Shown here piece by piece: positions 8,944 to 22,669 of a stretch of DNA of 30,325 nucleotides. Position 1 is the stretch's first letter; every line of letters begins with the position of its first letter. The DNA is from a virus. Both the position numbers and the translations under genes were made by a program. The notes beneath the pieces were generated by a model, which had not been told where the DNA came from, did no database searches, and saw only the letters and a program-made list of their open reading frames with translations. The stretch lies in UHGV virus genome UHGV-0061407; one strand, given 5' to 3'.

Positions 8944-9251
8944 GGCTCCTTAACTCCGGTAATGCGCTCCCAGAAATAGGTCAAAGCAACAGAACCCATT
9001 GCCCCGCTAATTCCGGAAGTGGCCAGTATCATGTAAATGCTCAATCCGCTTTCAATGCTCACCAGGCCAGCAATAACGCCGGTAAACCCTGAAACCACCA
9101 TTTGGGCAAGAGCATTGATCAAGCTCCATGTTGCCTTGCTCTGCTTCACATCTATCAGGTAGCGGACAAGTCCACCCCAGCAAGCAATGATCAGCAGAAC
9201 CAGCCAGGACATCCCGGCAATGCTCTCTTTGTCTTGCATACGTTTAGCCAT
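8940..9251 (-). CDS. Holin (putative, 3 TM segments)
   Basis: 103 aa hydrophobic protein immediately upstream of endolysin with 4-nt overlap; GGAGG RBS upstream of ATG. Confidence 0.6.
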   Translation of the reverse strand: MAKRMQDKESIAGMSWLVLLIIACWGGLVRYLIDVKQSKATWSLINALAQMVVSGFTGVIAGLVSIESGLSIYMILATSGISGAMGSVALTYFWERITGVKEP

Positions 9252-9365
9252 AGTTACCGCCTCCGATGAAAGATCGGGAAGCTGTGTGTTTGAAAGGGGT
9301 CAGGCCCGTCAGGCTGGATTTAACAACGAAGCGTGTCGATGATGATTCCTGCGGGACCTGATAAT

Positions 9366-9389
9366 AAAAAAGCCATGCAAATGCATGGC
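9366..9389 (-). terminator. Intrinsic terminator (minus strand): gccatgca-aa-tgcatggc followed by U-run
   Basis: Perfect 8-bp stem 9372-9379/9382-9389; plus-strand A-run 9366-9371 gives a T-run on the minus strand. Confidence 0.45.
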
Positions 9390-9493
9390 CTTGTGATTTG
9401 AATCCGTTATTTACAAAATGTATTCGAGACAGTATCTTTCGACTTCCGGACAAAAAAACATATACCGGGACAAAATCTAAATGTAACTGCCTT

Positions 9494-9554
9494 GCCTGCA
9501 TGAAACCATGCGGGCTTTTTTTTTGCCCAAAGAAAAAGCCCACCGAAGTGGGCC
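9494..9554. terminator. Back-to-back terminator hairpins (plus-strand hairpin + T9; minus-strand hairpin ggcccac-uucg-gugggc + U5)
   Basis: Plus: stem 9494-9502/9507-9515 (one G-U), loop aaac, T-run 9516-9524. Minus: stem 9538-9543/9548-9553 with UUCG-type loop, followed by T-run (complement of 9531-9537). Confidence 0.5.
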
Positions 9555-9927
9555 TTACAGCTATCATCATTTTTTATTAGGTGTGGTGCCGGGTGCCTCC
9601 CGGTAAGTCGCCGCCAGTCCACAGACGACTCGCAATGCGCAAAAAAACATATCAGACTGGCAATGCCCCTCCGCATAGGGGGATTCACCACACGGATAAT
9701 TTAGGATGTAGTCATAGGCGGCGTCAATAACTGACACTCTGTCAAAGGCACCATTACGATGCCTTTTGCACAGTGCTAATCACTGGCTCTAATAAGGGGC
9801 CAGAGCAAAGCGATTACCCCGGCTACCAGCACTCCATCAGCCAGGATTGACATCATTTTGCTGGTGAAGTCGATAGCAACCACCAGAAACAAAAGCACCC
9901 CAGCTGCGGCCCAGCGAAGTTTACCGA

Positions 9928-16192: not shown

Positions 16193-16665
16193 TCTGCCTC
16201 CAGCACTATTTTCAACTCAAACGGAACATCTCCTCCGCAATAGCAGAGCGGGCCAAGGTCAGACATGAGGCTCCACAGGGTCATTGACGTATAGCCATTT
16301 TCGTCTGTTACCGGGGGCGAAAAGTCTCCGAAGATCGCCGGGTGCTGGATTCGATTCTGCTCGTGTTGTTTTTCCAAATGTCTGAGGGAAACTTCATTAA
16401 GTTTCACTTTTACGATGCTGTTGAGATTGACCGATATTTCTCTGGCCAACAGCGAAGGGGTGATACTGATACCGCGAGAAACCCCGCGGGTGATTGTGAT
16501 AACACCCTTTTTCTCCAACGCCTTAAGGTGTGTTGCTGCTGCATTGGGGGACCGGCACCCCAGCATGCCGGTCAGTTCGTAAGTTGTAGGCGGAAAACCA
16601 TGTTTACGCTGATATTCGATCAGGAGGTCAAGGACCTCCTGCTGCCTTAAGGTCAAGGAAGTCAT
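16189..16665 (-). CDS. LexA-type winged-helix DNA-binding domain protein lacking the S24 peptidase domain
   Basis: 158 aa from ATG 16665, which overlaps the C5-MTase stop (ATGA); N-terminus LTLRQQEVLDLLIEYQRKHGFPPTTYELTGMLGCRSPNAAATHLKALEKKGVITITRG resembles the LexA N-terminal DNA-binding domain; no Ser-Lys protease motifs. Confidence 0.55.
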   Translation of the reverse strand: MTSLTLRQQEVLDLLIEYQRKHGFPPTTYELTGMLGCRSPNAAATHLKALEKKGVITITRGVSRGISITPSLLAREISVNLNSIVKVKLNEVSLRHLEKQHEQNRIQHPAIFGDFSPPVTDENGYTSMTLWSLMSDLGPLCYCGGDVPFELKIVLEAE

Positions 16666-18749
16666 GCTGCCTGCTCCTCTCTGTTCACGCACATTTCGGG
16701 TAAGTTGGCGCGTACCAGCGCTTCGGCGAACGGTGGCGGAACGGCATTGCCACAGCGCGCGACCTGCTTATCTTTCGCGTACTTCACGCCGCGGTAATCC
16801 TGGTCAATGATGTACCACTCGGGGAAGCCCTGCGCCCGGTAAAGTTCGTGTGGCTGCAGCATGCGCATGCCGATATCAACGATGCGGTAAGTCACTCCGC
16901 CGATTTCCACCAGCCCGGTGCATTCCTCTCCGCAGTATTCCTGCAGGAACGCCAGCACCTGCTGCGCGCGCTCTTCGTCGTAGTCCTCGACCGCCAGAGT
17001 CGTTTTAACCTCCCCTACGTGCTGGCCGCCGGCAGTGATAGTCGGCATCGGCTCGTCAGTAGGCTGGCCGTCACGGCAAGTACCGCGGAGCTTGACCAGA
17101 TGAGACGTAACCATTGCGGCATCAGCCTTTGTCGTCATGGTTTGCAGTGGCTCGCTAACGTCACGTGGCCTGCTCTGCCCAGCGCAACCGCCGACACCAA
17201 CAACCTGAGCAGTAACCAGCGCATGATGATCGACAGTAGTAACTGAGTGAGTAGGTTCGTCCAGGTCAATACCGGTGCCCTGGTAGTTCCCGCCATAGTG
17301 TTTTGCCAGAAATGCCCCAACAACCGCATGTTTCCCGCCACCAGCCACAACGGTACCCAGTGGCTTATCCAGTCCTGGCACACGAGGTGCCTGGCCTGGC
17401 CGTTCCCCGTATCCCGTTTGAATGAGCGTCGGCACTACCAGCTGCGATTTACCGCCACCGCCCGCGGTGATTGTTGCGCTAGGCTCATCCGCACGGTGTC
17501 CGATGCTGGCGCCGAACTGCCGGGCGATAACCGGAGCGACGACACAGGCGCGTGATTCTTTCAGGATGGTGTGAGCGGGTTTATCTAGCGGGCGTGGTTT
17601 AGCCTGGTACTCGCTGCCGCCATTGCCAGCCAGGAACGGCGCCAGCTCTGCTTCAACAATACCCAGAGCGTGACCATTCCCGCCCGGGCGTTTTGCGGTA
17701 CCGGCCGTCACCGTCGGCAACGGATCGGTGACTTCCTGCCCGGTAGCGCCGGTTCGGAATTTTGTCAGATGAGGTACCGCAATTGCGTAGCCGTGGGTTT
17801 TCGTAATCGTCTGTAGCGGATCGTCCAGCGCCTGTCCCCGGAAACAGTCATATTTGCCACGTGTCGTTGTGTGATTGCACTTCACGATGAATGGCGAAGC
17901 ACTTTCGATAACAAAGCGCTGAATGCCGCGGGCAATCCGTTTTAGCGTATTCTCTGCCAGTGACTTTTTGCGACCGAAGATGCTCGGCGCGGGGATTGAC
18001 CAGTCTATGCATTCCGCAGCTGTACGCCACGGCTCCAGCTGGCCCGCCAGCACGGCGGCAGACTTCGGATCCCCGTGCGTGGCTTCCGGCCAGACTATCG
18101 ATTTCCCGTCCCGGCGCATCACCATGAAGAACCGCTTACGGATGGTCGGCGCGCCATAATCGCAGGCGCGCAGCTCGCGAAAATCGACGACATAACCCAG
18201 CCCGGCAATTAAGCGCTTGGCCTGCTCGCTATCCGGTGAAAACTCCAGAAACTCGCAACACTCCACCAGTGCAGGATGATCTGCTGGAATACCGGTGGTA
18301 AGCATCCCGACAAATGCATTGAAAGTTTCACCGATGCGTGCCGGATCCGGTCGCATTTCTGCCGCGAGTAACGGACCCCACGTTTTAAACTCTTCGACGT
18401 TTTCCAGCATCATGACTCGCGGGCCAACATCCAGCGCCCAACGAATGACGATCCATGCCAGCCCTCGAATAGCTTTCTCTACTGGTTTAGCACCTTTCGC
18501 TTTAGAAAAGTGACGACAGTCAGGCGAGAACCATGCCAGGCCGACAGGCTTGCCACTGGTAGCGGCTAATGGGGATACATCAAACACACTTTCGCAATAG
18601 TGAAGCGTGTCGGGATGGTTAGTGCGGTGCATAGCAACGGCGTTAACATCGTGGTTAATCGCGATATCAACGCTACGCCCTATCGCCAGCTCAATACCTG
18701 TACTGGCGCCACCGCCACCAGCAAAATTATCGACAATAATCTCACGCAT
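16662..18749 (-). CDS. DNA (cytosine-5)-methyltransferase, large, with eight internal repeat modules
   Basis: 695 aa; motif I FAGGGG, PC motif (FSPDCRHFSKAKG), ENV motif (MLENVEEF), C-terminal RCGNAVPPP; central 270 aa made of eight repeats with core D-x-P-x-x-T-[IVM]-T. Confidence 0.9.
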   Translation of the reverse strand: MREIIVDNFAGGGGASTGIELAIGRSVDIAINHDVNAVAMHRTNHPDTLHYCESVFDVSPLAATSGKPVGLAWFSPDCRHFSKAKGAKPVEKAIRGLAWIVIRWALDVGPRVMMLENVEEFKTWGPLLAAEMRPDPARIGETFNAFVGMLTTGIPADHPALVECCEFLEFSPDSEQAKRLIAGLGYVVDFRELRACDYGAPTIRKRFFMVMRRDGKSIVWPEATHGDPKSAAVLAGQLEPWRTAAECIDWSIPAPSIFGRKKSLAENTLKRIARGIQRFVIESASPFIVKCNHTTTRGKYDCFRGQALDDPLQTITKTHGYAIAVPHLTKFRTGATGQEVTDPLPTVTAGTAKRPGGNGHALGIVEAELAPFLAGNGGSEYQAKPRPLDKPAHTILKESRACVVAPVIARQFGASIGHRADEPSATITAGGGGKSQLVVPTLIQTGYGERPGQAPRVPGLDKPLGTVVAGGGKHAVVGAFLAKHYGGNYQGTGIDLDEPTHSVTTVDHHALVTAQVVGVGGCAGQSRPRDVSEPLQTMTTKADAAMVTSHLVKLRGTCRDGQPTDEPMPTITAGGQHVGEVKTTLAVEDYDEERAQQVLAFLQEYCGEECTGLVEIGGVTYRIVDIGMRMLQPHELYRAQGFPEWYIIDQDYRGVKYAKDKQVARCGNAVPPPFAEALVRANLPEMCVNREEQAA

Positions 18750-19695
18750 GAGCGGTCCCCCTCATGCTGCCGACCAGCCCACCAGCAACGGTGATGATTT
18801 CGCTGGTGGGCACGCGCTCCAGCCACAACTGGTTAATGTGGGCCTTCAGCTTGTTCTGCTGGGAGAACTCCAGATCCTCTGCGCCTTGTACCTGTCCAAA
18901 GACGAGTCCAACTTCCAGTGGCCAGATCCGGGATTCAGGCTCAGCCAATGATGCAACAGCATCGGGGATGATCACTTCAGGAGACTGAACTGGCGAAACT
19001 GGTGACAGGAATTTTCCTGCAGCAAACTCAGCCAGCACCATACTTGCGCGCCCTTTTGCTTCCAGCTCAACGCGATCGATATAGCTAAAATGTTCACCGC
19101 GCCAGGTCTTATCAAATACCGCAATGGCCCCGGCAAAGAATGCGCTGGTGGGCTTCTGCTTTTCGTCGGCCGGCACAAACCACGTTGGGAGATCGAATCC
19201 AATACGACCACGAATAAACATGATGTGATCGGCATATTCCGGCCACCATGTTTCACTTGTTGCTGACTTCACGAGGTAAATGTAACGACCACCCTTTTCA
19301 CGCTGCTCGGCGGTATAGTTCATAATATGAGTCATGCCAGTGATGGCTTGTTTTTCATGGTACTGCGAACGGCTGTACGGCGGATTAGCAAAGGCAGCTC
19401 CTCCGAGTTCTACCAAACGACCAGACCAGTCCTGCGTCAGCGCATTATCTTCAGCGGTATACCATGCCGGACATTTTGTATTGCTGTCGTCTGCAAACAG
19501 GTCCAGTACCAGCGGGCCAAACATAGCGTTAACGCCCCAGAACAGCAGATCTGGTGTCCGCCATTGATCGCCAACCTCTTTCAAATAATGCGCACTGCGC
19601 TGGCGCTGTTCCTCAAGTGCCAGGCAATAAGGGTTGATGGTTTTTGTCAAAGTTTGCTCTTCTGCGGTCATAGCTTCTTGTACTTCCTGACTCAT
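18742..19695 (-). CDS. Phage Dam-like N6-adenine DNA methyltransferase
   Basis: 317 aa; motif WRTPDLLFWGVNAMFGPLVLDLFADDSN followed by FANPPYS (NPPY catalytic motif) typical of phage Dam-family N6A MTases; 8-nt overlap with C5-MTase start. Confidence 0.75.
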   Translation of the reverse strand: MSQEVQEAMTAEEQTLTKTINPYCLALEEQRQRSAHYLKEVGDQWRTPDLLFWGVNAMFGPLVLDLFADDSNTKCPAWYTAEDNALTQDWSGRLVELGGAAFANPPYSRSQYHEKQAITGMTHIMNYTAEQREKGGRYIYLVKSATSETWWPEYADHIMFIRGRIGFDLPTWFVPADEKQKPTSAFFAGAIAVFDKTWRGEHFSYIDRVELEAKGRASMVLAEFAAGKFLSPVSPVQSPEVIIPDAVASLAEPESRIWPLEVGLVFGQVQGAEDLEFSQQNKLKAHINQLWLERVPTSEIITVAGGLVGSMRGTAHA

Positions 19696-19886
19696 AGTTT
19701 TCCCCTGCGCTGATCAGCATCAACAAGTGCTCTCAGTAACCAGTAACGGCGATCAAAGCTGAAAAGGTCATCTCTGAGGAGTGCGTATTTTCTGCGAAAA
19801 ATAACGTCGTGCTGCCACCAGTAACGCCAGTGATGCAAACGCACAAGGCGCCGGAGACTTATCAAAATCTTCTTCAATCGGAGCAC
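19692..19886 (-). CDS. Hypothetical small Arg/Trp-rich protein
   Basis: 64 aa ORF filling the gap between the PerC-like and Dam-like genes with overlaps at both ends; no motif. Confidence 0.25.
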   Translation of the reverse strand: MLRLKKILISLRRLVRLHHWRYWWQHDVIFRRKYALLRDDLFSFDRRYWLLRALVDADQRRGKL

Positions 19887-20332
19887 AAGTCACCTCCGCA
19901 GTAATTTCCTGCCAGATAGCATGACCCGGCGGAATCATTCATGTTTCTGGCGTTTCGAACAGAAGCATTCTTAAGACGCAGGTACCGCTCTCTTGCTTTA
20001 GCCGTACAGTTGCTGTCACAAAGTTGCTGCCATACCGTCGCCGCACGGCGGTAATAGCGTTTCTCTTCCAGCTTTTTGGCTGTCGCTTCAAGGGCAAGAA
20101 TCTCCCCCGAAAGCCCACCAGGCAGGTACTCTTCAATATCGATGGATCCCGCTACGAAGTAGATAAACCCACCAGTAACTTCAACGCTGGCAAGTTCCCC
20201 GTCGTAGTACAGGCGATGAACAGCGCTCTTCACTGTTACCGGTTTGGTTTCAGGAAATGCCGCAGTGATATCGCGCAGCATTTTGCCTGGATTCTTCTCA
20301 ATAAATTCAAAGATCGACTTGGCTATGTTCAT
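19874..20332 (-). CDS. Hypothetical protein, possibly PerC-family regulator-like
   Basis: 152 aa; segment RYYRRAATVWQQL resembles the RRAA..W signature I associate with PerC-like prophage regulators; weak. Confidence 0.35.
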   Translation of the reverse strand: MNIAKSIFEFIEKNPGKMLRDITAAFPETKPVTVKSAVHRLYYDGELASVEVTGGFIYFVAGSIDIEEYLPGGLSGEILALEATAKKLEEKRYYRRAATVWQQLCDSNCTAKARERYLRLKNASVRNARNMNDSAGSCYLAGNYCGGDLCSD

Positions 20333-21240
20333 CCCCGGAACCCCCGTGGAATAGTGGTTTGTACTGGACTAATTGAATTAACATCCCGCGGTCTGGTTTT
20401 GTCCCACAACTCCCTTGGCGGGCGGCCTTTGGCATCCCAACGGATAGCGCTTTGCAGATATCCCTCGAATTTTTTAGGGCCGAAAAGTGTCTCGGGTCGC
20501 ATGTACTGGTATTGCTCGTCGTTGCCATGCCAGTGCTCATGTTTGACGTCGATTACCAGTTTCAAGTCGCTAACGGTATGACCTTCGCGGAGGCGCGCGC
20601 GAATGTTCTCCAGTGAGGTCTTAGATTTCTGGTAACGGGAACCGCTGACCAGATTCAGGTGTGCCAGAACTTCGATCGCGTTATCGGTAATAACAACTTC
20701 AGGATCCGGCTTATCGTCGGGTTCCGCAGGAGCCCGACAAGAAGGTTTTTTAGATGACGGATCTAATGACGGATCTAATGACGGATCGCCTTCAACCATT
20801 GAGGGGTCCTCCCGCAATATTTGAGGGGGTACAGACCCATTATTTGAGGCATCAGAATTTGACCCCTCAAATTTTGAACCCTCAAATTCTGAGGCATCAA
20901 ATTTTGATTGTTCACGTGGCGTTGCGTAGAAGATTTTTGCTTCAGCTGCTGCACGTTCCAGCATGTCAACATTGAGTTTATAAACGTTCGAATTATTCTT
21001 TCCGCCCACGCGCCGTTCCTGCTTCTTCAGCCAGCCTTTAGCCTGAAGCTTTTTGATAGCGCTGCGGACAGTATTCTCGCTCTTGGCGCCGATCTGTCGC
21101 TGAATAGTGGTTACCGCTGGCCATGACACACCTTCGTCATTACTGAAATCTGCCAGGGGAGCCATGACCGCTATTTCTGAGATTATCAGCCCTTTGAAAG
21201 CGCATGCTTCCCATACGAGGCCGTGTAATTTACTGCTCAT
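20329..21240 (-). CDS. Replication initiator / replisome-organizer-like protein (N-terminal HTH, repetitive linker, conserved phage C-terminal domain)
   Basis: 303 aa; N-terminal HTH-like segment, repetitive linker (KFDASEFEGSKFEGS, PSLDPSLDPS) coinciding with DNA iterons, C-terminal domain of the kind found in phage replication proteins. Confidence 0.65.
   Translation of the reverse strand: MSSKLHGLVWEACAFKGLIISEIAVMAPLADFSNDEGVSWPAVTTIQRQIGAKSENTVRSAIKKLQAKGWLKKQERRVGGKNNSNVYKLNVDMLERAAAEAKIFYATPREQSKFDASEFEGSKFEGSNSDASNNGSVPPQILREDPSMVEGDPSLDPSLDPSSKKPSCRAPAEPDDKPDPEVVITDNAIEVLAHLNLVSGSRYQKSKTSLENIRARLREGHTVSDLKLVIDVKHEHWHGNDEQYQYMRPETLFGPKKFEGYLQSAIRWDAKGRPPRELWDKTRPRDVNSISPVQTTIPRGFRG
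20754..20905. repeat. Iteron cluster inside the replication gene (candidate origin)
   Basis: Tandem 12-bp repeat atgacggatcta x2.8 (20754-20788); repeated atttgagg / cctcaaatt motifs in both orientations and direct 10-bp repeat tgaggcatca (20845-20854, 20890-20899). Confidence 0.5.
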
Positions 21241-21409
21241 GGCTGCCCTCTACTTCCCTGAACTTGCGTTGAAACTGATCGAGTGGGCTAAAGCACTCGT
21301 GGGAATAGCCTTCCCGCAGGTAGATGACGCGACGTGTCTCAGGCTCCCAGCGGATAACTCTGACTGGATTGCCATAGTGGTCTTTGAACTTCCGGTTAAC
21401 TTCTCGCAT
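21230..21409 (-). CDS. Hypothetical small protein (59 aa), not in ORF track
   Basis: ATG at 21409 with GGAGGG RBS about 10 nt upstream; MREVNRKFKDHYGNPVRVIRWEPETRRVIYLREGYSHECFSPLDQFQRKFREVEGSHEQ; stop overlaps the start of the replication gene. Confidence 0.4.
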   Translation of the reverse strand: MREVNRKFKDHYGNPVRVIRWEPETRRVIYLREGYSHECFSPLDQFQRKFREVEGSHEQ

Positions 21410-21581
21410 AGCGCTTTAGCCCTCCGGTTAAAGACCCCCACAACCCCGCGTGCCCGACTGTGGTTACACTCGACCCATTTACCGCATACCATGCGCTCAT
21501 ACCGAAACGACGAAACGCCCGGGATCGGGTACATCCGTAGTTGCGGTAATTGAAGATTTACGATTAAATTGCTCATGCGGA

Positions 21582-22130
21582 TTATTTCTCCATACACAAA
21601 GATTTATTCGCCACGACGCCCGGAGCTGCACACTCGCGGGCGTCACTCTTTTCTGGCAGACAATAAACACGAGAAATCAGGTTGAGAAACGTCATCAACG
21701 TGACCCGGAACTGGTAGGCGATATCATTCAGGCTTTGCCACTCGCCATGTGTAACCACCCCATCATCGATATATTCCCGATAGGCGCTGACCAACTCGCC
21801 AAGCTGACCCACCAGCTCCGCCAGCTTCAAACCAATCTCTTCGTTCTCGTCTTCATGAGCAGCGCCAGATACATGGATTCCGTTGTCGGTTTCACGCGAA
21901 AAAACATCGGCGATGTAGCTAACACCTGCGGCCTTCTGCAAGACCATTGCCCAGCCCATAGGGAATATCTGATCTCCACCAGCACGCAGTCGGTTAAAGA
22001 TCGCGTCCTGGGTGGTATCCAGAATCTCAGCGGCTTCGATATAGCCACCAGGTAACGCGGCTATTGTTTTACGGATCGCCGCCCCCAGCCATGCTGGCTG
22101 CTTTTCGACTTTCCAGTGTTGTTCAATCAT
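21582..22130 (-). CDS. CII-like phage regulatory protein (tentative)
   Basis: 182 aa ORF in the position of cII/early regulators between cro and the replication gene; family assignment from general resemblance only. Confidence 0.4.
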   Translation of the reverse strand: MIEQHWKVEKQPAWLGAAIRKTIAALPGGYIEAAEILDTTQDAIFNRLRAGGDQIFPMGWAMVLQKAAGVSYIADVFSRETDNGIHVSGAAHEDENEEIGLKLAELVGQLGELVSAYREYIDDGVVTHGEWQSLNDIAYQFRVTLMTFLNLISRVYCLPEKSDARECAAPGVVANKSLCMEK

Positions 22131-22196
22131 TGCTCTATACCTCTGTTGGTGTATGATTTCTAAATCAATGACCTATCGAAAAAAACGGGATAAAAA

Positions 22197-22520
22197 ATGC
22201 AGAACCCGCTCGCCAAACTTTCCCTGGATTACTGGTACAAAGTTATGATCCTGATAGGCGCTTTTATTTTTCTTCTCAACGGTGCCGGACTCCTTCCCGC
22301 GTACCCCACAGCAGTCACAGGCTTCATATCCTCTGGACTTTTCTTTTGGGGTCTTGGCGAATGGATGAATCACCCTTATCAGGAGGTGTTGACCTTGGAT
22401 CCCTTTAACCGTCCGACTGGCAAGATATCTGGGCATCCACGGAACGCCTGTCTTATTGGGAATATCTTTGATTTGATTGGATTCGTACTGATCATCACAG
22501 GGCTGATTAAACTCTTCTAA
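22197..22520 (+). CDS. Small membrane protein (3 predicted TM segments), opposite orientation to early-right operon
   Basis: 107 aa with three clean hydrophobic helices; an overlapping minus-strand ORF (22173..22625) has K/E/Q/N-rich composition expected for the antisense shadow of a membrane-protein gene. Confidence 0.4.
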   Translation: MQNPLAKLSLDYWYKVMILIGAFIFLLNGAGLLPAYPTAVTGFISSGLFFWGLGEWMNHPYQEVLTLDPFNRPTGKISGHPRNACLIGNIFDLIGFVLIITGLIKLF

Positions 22521-22669
22521 ATGCCAGCCAATCAGGGTAACCGTTCGGCCATCATGACTATGCTTTACCGAACCGGGTGCAAGATTTTCCAGCACTTGAA
22601 ACATATTCTTAAGCTTGTCCCCCACTGCTTACCCCCTACGTCTGTGGTTAACGCTGCTAAAACCAAATG

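Follow-up and report, generated by a model that had tools for sequence, protein, structure and literature searches.

The window analysed here, a stretch of 30,325 nucleotides (nt) from the virus genome UHGV-0061407, raises the question of what is encoded directly upstream of its replication gene, where two open reading frames (ORFs) on the minus strand share the same DNA. The listed ORF of 115 amino acids runs from 21250 to 21597, and a sequence-only reading had set it aside as a low-complexity artefact in favour of an unlisted ORF of 59 codons, with GGAGGG about 10 nt upstream of its start and a stop that reaches into the start of the replication gene. The shorter ORF is present exactly as described, overlapping the replication gene by 11 nt and sharing 160 nt with the longer one in a different frame, and it was left off the list just because it is shorter than 60 codons. 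The best explanation overall, to which we give a probability of roughly 60 %, is that the 59-codon ORF is a real gene of the DUF4222 family, that it is nested in a homologue of the ymfM gene of Escherichia coli K-12 in a dual-coding arrangement, and that its product would act with the replication module.

The DUF4222-family gene occupies 21230..21409 on the minus strand (ATG 21409-21407, TAA 21232-21230) and its 59-amino-acid translation is MREVNRKFKDHYGNPVRVIRWEPETRRVIYLREGYSHECFSPLDQFQRKFREVEGSHEQ. The protein matches Pfam family PF13973 (DUF4222) at 62.4 bits against a gathering cut-off of 27 (E = 2.9e-17), with residues 3-54 aligned to profile positions 4-53 of 53, and matches phrog_1343 over its full length (E = 3e-31); NCBIfam holds no model for it, nor for the ymfM-like protein. 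A protein search returned 103 homologous clusters, nearly all already named "DUF4222 domain-containing protein" and the best 98 % identical, from sources that include Klebsiella, Enterobacter, Citrobacter, Escherichia, Salmonella and Kosakonia. The identical protein is encoded on IMG/VR contigs, and the same frame is called by the Prokaryotic Genome Annotation Pipeline (PGAP) in E. coli relatives about 77 % identical in DNA. Size, conserved motif (G13, V16, R20-W21, R27-V-I-Y30, R32 and G-Y..E-C..P-L..F..F) and site upstream of a replication gene are shared with PF13973 and PHROG 1343, from which, with proteins 98-100 % identical already in the databases, the window gene shows no essential difference. 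Invariant and near-invariant columns of the protein are common to 44-56 homologues, and the peptide FKDHYGNPVR is specific to the DUF4222 frame. The gene itself is of an already known kind, named automatically by PGAP in relatives. The sequence-only reading had called its product basic and Trp/Arg-containing; one Trp and 12 Lys or Arg are there, but against 10 Asp or Glu the protein is just mildly basic.

Chance alone could give an ORF of 59 codons, dozens of such ORFs being found within 3.5 kb, and this one is judged real because of its homology and the selection on it, not its length. The selection tests used 102 unique homologous DNA sequences, related and recombining, of the subfamily in which DUF4222 adjoins ymfM. 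In the DUF4222 frame, parsimony (Fitch) changes number 95, 66 and 415 at codon positions 1, 2 and 3, and the Nei-Gojobori ratio of non-synonymous to synonymous differences per site (pN/pS) is 0.13, with synonymous sites saturated; by these sequence comparisons the ORF is under strong purifying selection at the protein level. Homology and substitution pattern together make the 59-codon ORF almost certainly a real DUF4222 gene. The reverse proposal, that the 115-amino-acid ymfM ORF is the sole gene and the 59-codon ORF its shadow, draws on the match of the long ORF to phrog_1170 and on the K-12 record NC_000913.3 and several phage records, which annotate the long frame only, but we give it next to no credence: the substitution periodicity and the pN/pS of 0.13 belong to the 59-codon frame, DUF4222 genes exist without an overlapping ORF, and one family member, RgdR, has a purified protein and phenotypes. 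The sequence-only reading had set against itself the outcome that the 115-amino-acid frame is conserved instead; that frame is indeed conserved as an open frame, but not exclusively, the shorter one being conserved as a protein in the relatives (103 clusters, 102 DNA sequences).

The dismissal of the longer ORF as a low-complexity artefact does not hold, as it is a homologue of K-12 ymfM with an N-terminal module that shows coding constraint and with a frame that is kept open. Its mechanical form begins at GTG 21597, and it most likely yields 108 amino acids from ATG 21576 (21250..21576, minus strand), 5 nt after the ymfL stop and with GGAG upstream. It matches phrog_1170 (E = 2e-13) and lies in the K-12 ymfM slot, the K-12 ORF lying between ymfL and ymfN/oweE and the ymfL-ymfM-ymfN synteny being conserved; it is 38 % identical to K-12 YmfM, and the N-domains alone are 31 % identical (E = 2e-6) and align profile to profile (hhalign) at 94.7 % probability (E = 6e-8). 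The K-12 gene, in prophage e14 (b1148), resembles it in its slot between ymfL and a replication gene, in its length class (112 against 108 amino acids), in its homologous N-domain and in carrying the same nested DUF4222 ORF, and differs in the class of its N-domain, which is B in e14 and A in the window.

The N-terminal module of the ymfM homologue (codons 1-52; 21421..21576, minus strand), an independently conserved coding region, is what PGAP leaves as an intergenic gap. Over about 55 residues it follows the pattern MSNLIVN..LPQLRM.PVPG..FRYER..KWV.CNHSRA..VGVFNRR, its Fitch changes by codon position (79/68/170) have coding periodicity, and its pN/pS is 0.45. AlphaFold2 (AF2) models residues 7-62 as three strands and a long helix with a predicted local distance difference test score (pLDDT) of about 90, and a Foldseek search of the ymfM-like model against the PDB found nothing (best E = 1.2). 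Homologues of 59-67 amino acids consisting of this module alone stand directly after ymfL in three loci (L005, L006 and L007), and at least four divergent classes of the module are mutually homologous (hhalign 89-96 % probability). On this conservation and modelling, the N-module is a real, foldable and separately conserved coding unit.

The dual-coding segment proper is 160 nt long (21250..21409, minus strand), in which frame 0 reads the first 53 codons of DUF4222 and the +1 frame reads the ymfM tail, DUF4222 thus lying out of frame (-1) within the 3' half of the ymfM homologue. In 102/102 sequences, with any class of N-domain, the +1 frame is free of stops over the first 52 codons of DUF4222 and closes at the 53rd. 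When all synonymous encodings of the DUF4222 proteins are enumerated exactly, an open +1 frame is expected in 5 % with an approximate E. coli codon-usage table, or in 10 % with the usage of the window's long ORFs, against the 102/102 observed. The +2 frame is expected to be open in less than 1 % and is in fact always closed.

The codons of DUF4222 vary in ways that keep the second frame open up to a fixed end. Codon 53 is always NTA (ATA 38, TTA 34, GTA 29, CTA 1), encoding I, L or V; its first position has changed 6 times and its third never, the choice of NTA involves rare codons, and the next codon begins with A or G in 102/102 (NTA+R). At codons 4, 18, 28 and 43, where a third-position purine leads to TAA, TGA or TAG in +1, exclusively NTY is used and all 20 inferred changes are between C and T, while at six four-fold sites taken as controls each of the four bases occurs, with 10-18 changes per site. 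NTG or NTA is found at V16, I19 and L31 only if the next Arg is CGN, never AGR (21:0, 30:0 and 57:0), and Arg2, right after the ATG, is never AGR in the 102 sequences. As a separate observation, Leu43 (21281-21283) is just CTC or CTT in 102/102, and CTG at this codon would read as TGG (Trp) and not as a stop in the ymfM frame; the bias may be due to a weak amino-acid constraint on the ymfM tail or to chance, just 4 changes being inferred. DUF4222 genes without a directly preceding ymfM served as a control and have +1 stops in 55/56 unique sequences (48/48 of the RgdR type, 7/8 of the type preceded by Rha), and the openness is therefore specific to the ymfM-adjacent arrangement.

Constraint on amino acids within the overlap holds for the DUF4222 product and not for the ymfM tail, which contains the peptide TTMAIQSELSAGSLR, specific to the ymfM frame. 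The pN/pS of the ymfM frame over the overlap is 2.4, DUF4222 shows no lowering of its synonymous rate (pS 0.79), and the tail is predicted to be disordered (AF2 pLDDT < 50); selection thus acts on the open frame and the position of its stop, not on the tail residues. That stop, TAG at 21252-21250, is the first part of a short element (21241..21252, minus strand) which also holds the Shine-Dalgarno sequence (SD) GAGGG of the replication gene and its spacer; it shares the frame of the replication ATG and lies 12 nt upstream of it. The ymfM stop abuts the SD of the replication gene, as TAGAGGGCAGCCATG in the window and TAAAGGACGACCATG in other relatives, and in most of the 102 unique relatives the replication ATG lies in frame 12 nt past it.

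The disorder and the pN/pS of 2.4 would also suit a simpler account, in which only the first 57 or so codons of the long ORF matter and the read-through over DUF4222 is an unselected accident; the stand-alone ymfM N-module proteins of 59-67 amino acids speak for it as well. We consider this account improbable, in that a frame with a 0.05-0.10 chance of being open is open in 102/102 sequences at synonymous divergence (dS) above 1, codons covary so as to avoid stops, the stop is fixed at a rare-codon NTA, and DUF4222 in its other contexts carries +1 stops (55/56). On the codon evidence, selection on both reading frames is very probable. Out-of-frame nested or overlapping phage genes are known, as in lambda Rz/Rz1, phiX174 and MS2, and the present locus resembles them in having two same-strand frames in one stretch of DNA that are conserved in relatives. 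It differs from them in that the ymfM tail is without amino-acid constraint, just the open frame and stop position being kept, and in that the ymfM N-module and DUF4222 are separable and found apart in other phages.

The DUF4222 gene has initiation signals of its own. Its SD, GGAGGG at 21425-21420 (minus strand), has a 10-nt spacer before the ATG, as read from the sequence, and is encoded by the conserved ymfM-frame codons ..N-R-R-A..; purine-rich SD-like motifs lie 3-13 nt 5' of the start in 95/102 relatives. Programmed -1 frameshifting from ymfM into DUF4222 was rejected, as a TAA in the DUF4222 frame lies 6 nt ahead of the ATG, the spacer shows little conservation, a slippery heptamer is lacking, and relatives keep a start of their own (ATG 97, GTG 3 and TTG 2 of 102). 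An antisense ORF of 148 amino acids (21107-21553, plus strand) spans the whole DUF4222 gene and is probably a shadow or by-product. The antisense frame of the DUF4222 codons is open in 99/102, and it is treated as a by-product because it is open wherever TTA, CTA and TCA codons are lacking (chance about 0.5) and leaves the codon covariation unexplained.

The link to the replication gene, which the sequence-only reading had seen in the stop/start overlap, extends to three subfamilies and would be read as translational coupling. In the window, the TAA of DUF4222 lies 8 nt beyond the ATG (21240-21238) of an O-like replication initiator, or "primosomal protein", of 303 amino acids (HTH_36 + Phg_2220_C; 20329..21240, minus strand; Pfam PF09524 at 82 bits and PF13730; phrog_428 "replication initiation protein", E = 6e-63). 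Throughout the ymfM-adjacent subfamily the DUF4222 stop runs into the start of a Phg_2220_C initiator, and this holds for all the N-terminal variants of the initiator. The overlap with the replication-gene start is 4 nt in 9/9 loci of the Rha-preceded subfamily, and in 79/80 loci of the RgdR type there is a 4-nt overlap with a gene of another, unrelated kind (DUF927, primase/helicase-type). Across its three subfamilies, the DUF4222 family shares a single consistent feature, the overlap with a replication gene. In two loci (L005 and L007) a Rha/ANT gene separates the ymfM N-module from DUF4222, which keeps its place next to the replication gene. In these Citrobacter-type prophages (L005 2501-3559, L007 2501-3550) the Rha/ANT antirepressor-like gene stands exactly after the ymfM ..NRR.. 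codons, and CGGAGG at this junction serves as its SD, which suggests that the ..NRR.. junction is a recombination joint between regulatory and replication modules.

A role as replication accessory is proposed because this overlap is the one feature that the family keeps throughout. DUF4222 may act with or on the replication module as a small protein- or nucleic-acid-binding accessory or regulator, and translational coupling could have it made in fixed proportion to the initiator; alternatively, the protein may be an interaction module that, like RgdR, acts on DNA. The stops of ymfM and DUF4222 lie at most 12 nt to either side of the initiator ATG, and two upstream frames ending at the initiator's ribosome-binding site could make initiator translation depend on upstream translation. 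Coupling through two frames would account for selection against early stops in the ymfM frame in spite of a tail that is dispensable elsewhere. We hold this mechanism tentatively, as an attractive possibility that falls somewhat short of even odds. The sequence-only reading had spoken of a small regulator or replication accessory protein, and this points to the right area, RgdR being a small pleiotropic regulator and the replication-gene overlap being real, while as a function it stays a proposal from sequence.

Several points weigh against the interpretation as a whole. In one locus (L006) a ymfL-ymfM module has a replication-type gene without DUF4222, which is then not universally required, and the ymfM tail is not needed where the N-module stands alone (L005, L006 and L007). 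The published account of RgdR presents it as a co-regulator of transcription that binds DNA weakly and non-specifically, and not as a replication factor (PMC3378721). The 102 sequences are related and recombining, their counts are therefore not independent, and tree-based counts lessen this without removing it. The lower of the two expectations for openness comes from the approximate E. coli codon table, the window-derived table giving 0.10.

RgdR (ECs1581), from the cryptic prophage CP-933C of enterohaemorrhagic E. coli (EHEC) O157:H7, is the one DUF4222 member studied experimentally that was found in the literature. The protein has 99 amino acids, activates LEE1 and with it the type III secretion system (T3SS), and represses motility (Flockhart et al. 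2012, PMC3378721; PMC10877973); its DNA binding is weak and non-specific (PMC3378721). Its gene was located in strain EDL933 (L117 18743-19042), with a PF13973 match of 82 bits. The window protein is 41 % identical to RgdR over 49 amino acids, in an alignment starting at RgdR residue 24, and both are small prophage proteins with a PF13973 domain and a stop overlapping the start of a replication-type gene. RgdR differs in having an N-terminal extension with RGD (residues 20-22) and a basic C-terminal tail of 30 amino acids, both absent from the window protein, in its setting, a P4-like element with a DUF927 gene downstream as against a lambdoid context with a Phg_2220_C initiator downstream, and in the absence from its type of an overlapping gene in the +1 frame (stops in 48/48). 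The T3SS and motility phenotypes are specific to EHEC, and the window protein is compared with RgdR by sequence.

The DUF4222 family is narrow. Among 1.84 billion representatives, 78 clusters (50 % identity) were found at E <= 1e-3, nearly all of them stand-alone proteins of 55-100 amino acids, and there were no informative domain fusions in that set, just frameshifted or chimeric assemblies. AlphaFold2, run on 57 sequences, models the protein at pLDDT 81 with five strands and a short helix, and Foldseek aligns the model with template modelling scores of 0.63-0.75 to barrels of the Spt5/NusG KOW, Tudor, KorB-C, TnsB C-terminal and DUF1653 kinds, all of them generic small barrels, none at a significant E-value (best 0.056 in the PDB and 0.003 in BFVD). 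The protein of about 55 residues is thus predicted to be a small SH3/KOW/Tudor-like beta-barrel, and such matches would give it a fold class, not a function.

These barrels of the KOW, KorB-C and Tudor kind are interaction modules, and they fit a reading in which DUF4222 is an RgdR-like pleiotropic regulator, a small cofactor that binds DNA or other regulators and alters host or prophage transcription, with its place beside replication genes just a matter of operon economy. In favour of this, RgdR clearly belongs to DUF4222 (82 bits), shares 41 % identity with the window protein, and has effects on LEE1 (activation) and motility (repression) along with weak DNA binding (PMC3378721). The reading is nonetheless unlikely in our judgement, though less so than the other alternatives: the window protein is without the RGD extension and the basic C-terminal tail, the RgdR phenotypes come from EHEC-specific read-outs and plasmid expression, and the overlap is kept across two unrelated classes of replication protein, which suggests more than chance co-location. 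The preferred reading remains that of a DUF4222 gene nested in ymfM, its product acting with the replication module.

The same arrangement is present in E. coli K-12. In prophage e14, ymfM (b1148, 112 amino acids, "cell division inhibitor YmfM") lies at L004 3323-3661, and the nested DUF4222 ORF, of 59 amino acids and with a TTG start, lies in its 3' half at L004 3502-3681 (NC_000913.3 1204001-1204180), 53 of its 59 codons falling inside the ymfM ORF. NC_000913.3 has ymfM annotated and not the nested DUF4222, whereas PGAP, on identical K-12 DNA (NZ_CP032667.1), calls DUF4222 only (WP_001250269.1) and leaves a 175-nt gap after ymfL. The e14-type version is found in about 2,000 of 5,426 complete E. 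coli genomes, where PGAP annotates DUF4222 only, and several phage GenBank records (Pharokka-style) have the long ymfM frame only, the opposite of PGAP. In six entries (P0004, P0083, P0115, P0119, P0139 and L108) chimeric proteins run from the ymfM frame into the DUF4222 frame by way of single-base indels or small deletions; these probably represent sequencing errors or decaying prophages, and they illustrate the difficulty that gene callers have at the ymfM/DUF4222 locus.

K-12 ymfM has been identified as the e14 division inhibitor (SfiC), blocking FtsZ rings, by means of a pBAD24-ymfM clone and a ymfM deletion (Ansari et al., bioRxiv 10.1101/2020.11.19.390815). Division inhibition is thus reported for the K-12 protein, to which the window's long ORF is likened by sequence and position. 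The library clones, pBAD24-ymfM and the deletion all carry or remove the nested DUF4222 ORF as well, and a clone of the ymfM ORF only cuts off just the last six DUF4222 codons; the preprint (10.1101/2020.11.19.390815) reports no frame-specific mutant, tag or immunoblot, and no paper was found in the literature that links ymfM with DUF4222 or with overlapping genes. It could accordingly be asked whether the nested DUF4222, instead of or together with YmfM, causes the SOS-inducible division block. For this speak the 53 of 59 codons within the cloned ORF, the fact that pBAD-ymfM, the deletion and the earlier library clones affect both products, and the far stronger conservation of DUF4222 than of the ymfM N-domain. 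We think the idea rather improbable all the same, as the K-12 start is a weak TTG, the last 6 codons are replaced by vector sequence in the clone, filamentation is not mentioned for RgdR expression, and the ymfM N-domain is a real folded module without another known role. A bolder form, and still something of a long shot, is that "ymfM" of e14 and lambdoid phages is a two-in-one cassette, with the SfiC phenotype coming wholly or partly from the nested DUF4222 or needing both products, and more generally with the ymfM frame kept open so that ribosomes of two frames would terminate at the ribosome-binding site of the replication gene.

As read from its genes, the DUF4222 ORF is located in the early-right operon of a lambdoid (Klebsiella-type) prophage, and the phage record closest to the window is Klebsiella phage Kp4866-6 (98.7 % identity). 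The operon is packed in the order ymfL, ymfM, DUF4222 (nested) and replication initiator. Directly 5' of ymfM lies the ymfL gene for a CII-like regulator (21582..22130, minus strand; NCBIfam NF041471 phage_reg_YmfL at 118 bits; phrog_101 CII-like activator, E = 2e-40), and farther upstream are a Cro/YdaS-like gene and a divergent S24-peptidase repressor gene. On the minus strand of the stretch from ymfL to the replication gene no sigma-70-like promoter and no intrinsic terminator were found. Rfam at gathering threshold gave no match in 21200-21600, and the apparent gap between ymfL and DUF4222 is on that ground not a known RNA.

Other observations concern the surrounding genes. A PerC-like transcriptional activator gene (19874-20332, minus strand; phrog_1324, E = 3e-49) has its start in a 4-nt overlap with the stop of the replication gene, and is followed by a gene resembling phosphoadenosine phosphosulfate reductases and DNA methylases (18742-19695) and by a large DNA methyltransferase gene (16662-18749). 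Between the cro-like gene and ymfL, at 22173-22625, two long ORFs overlap on opposite strands: a minus-strand ORF of 150 amino acids with a weak match to phrog_35040 (E = 5e-5), and a plus-strand ORF of 107 amino acids (22197-22520) that resembles a multi-pass membrane protein and is without a family match. An Rfam match to the small RNA family STnc100 (RF02076, 99.8 bits, E = 7e-21) lies at 9525-9722 (minus strand) and overlaps the ORFs 9244-9570 and 9407-9691.

Identical DNA at this locus is annotated in two mutually exclusive ways, and the comparative evidence supports both frames; what has gone undocumented is the conserved dual-coding arrangement that DUF4222 forms with ymfM, overlooked by annotation pipelines and by experiments on ymfM. 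The assignment of ymfM as SfiC rests on constructs that do not separate the two products, and either of them may be the one that blocks Z-rings. The locus offers a clear natural case in which an open reading frame is selected for and the amino acids that it encodes are not, and DUF4222 would gain its first consistent genomic signature, a putative translational coupling to replication genes.

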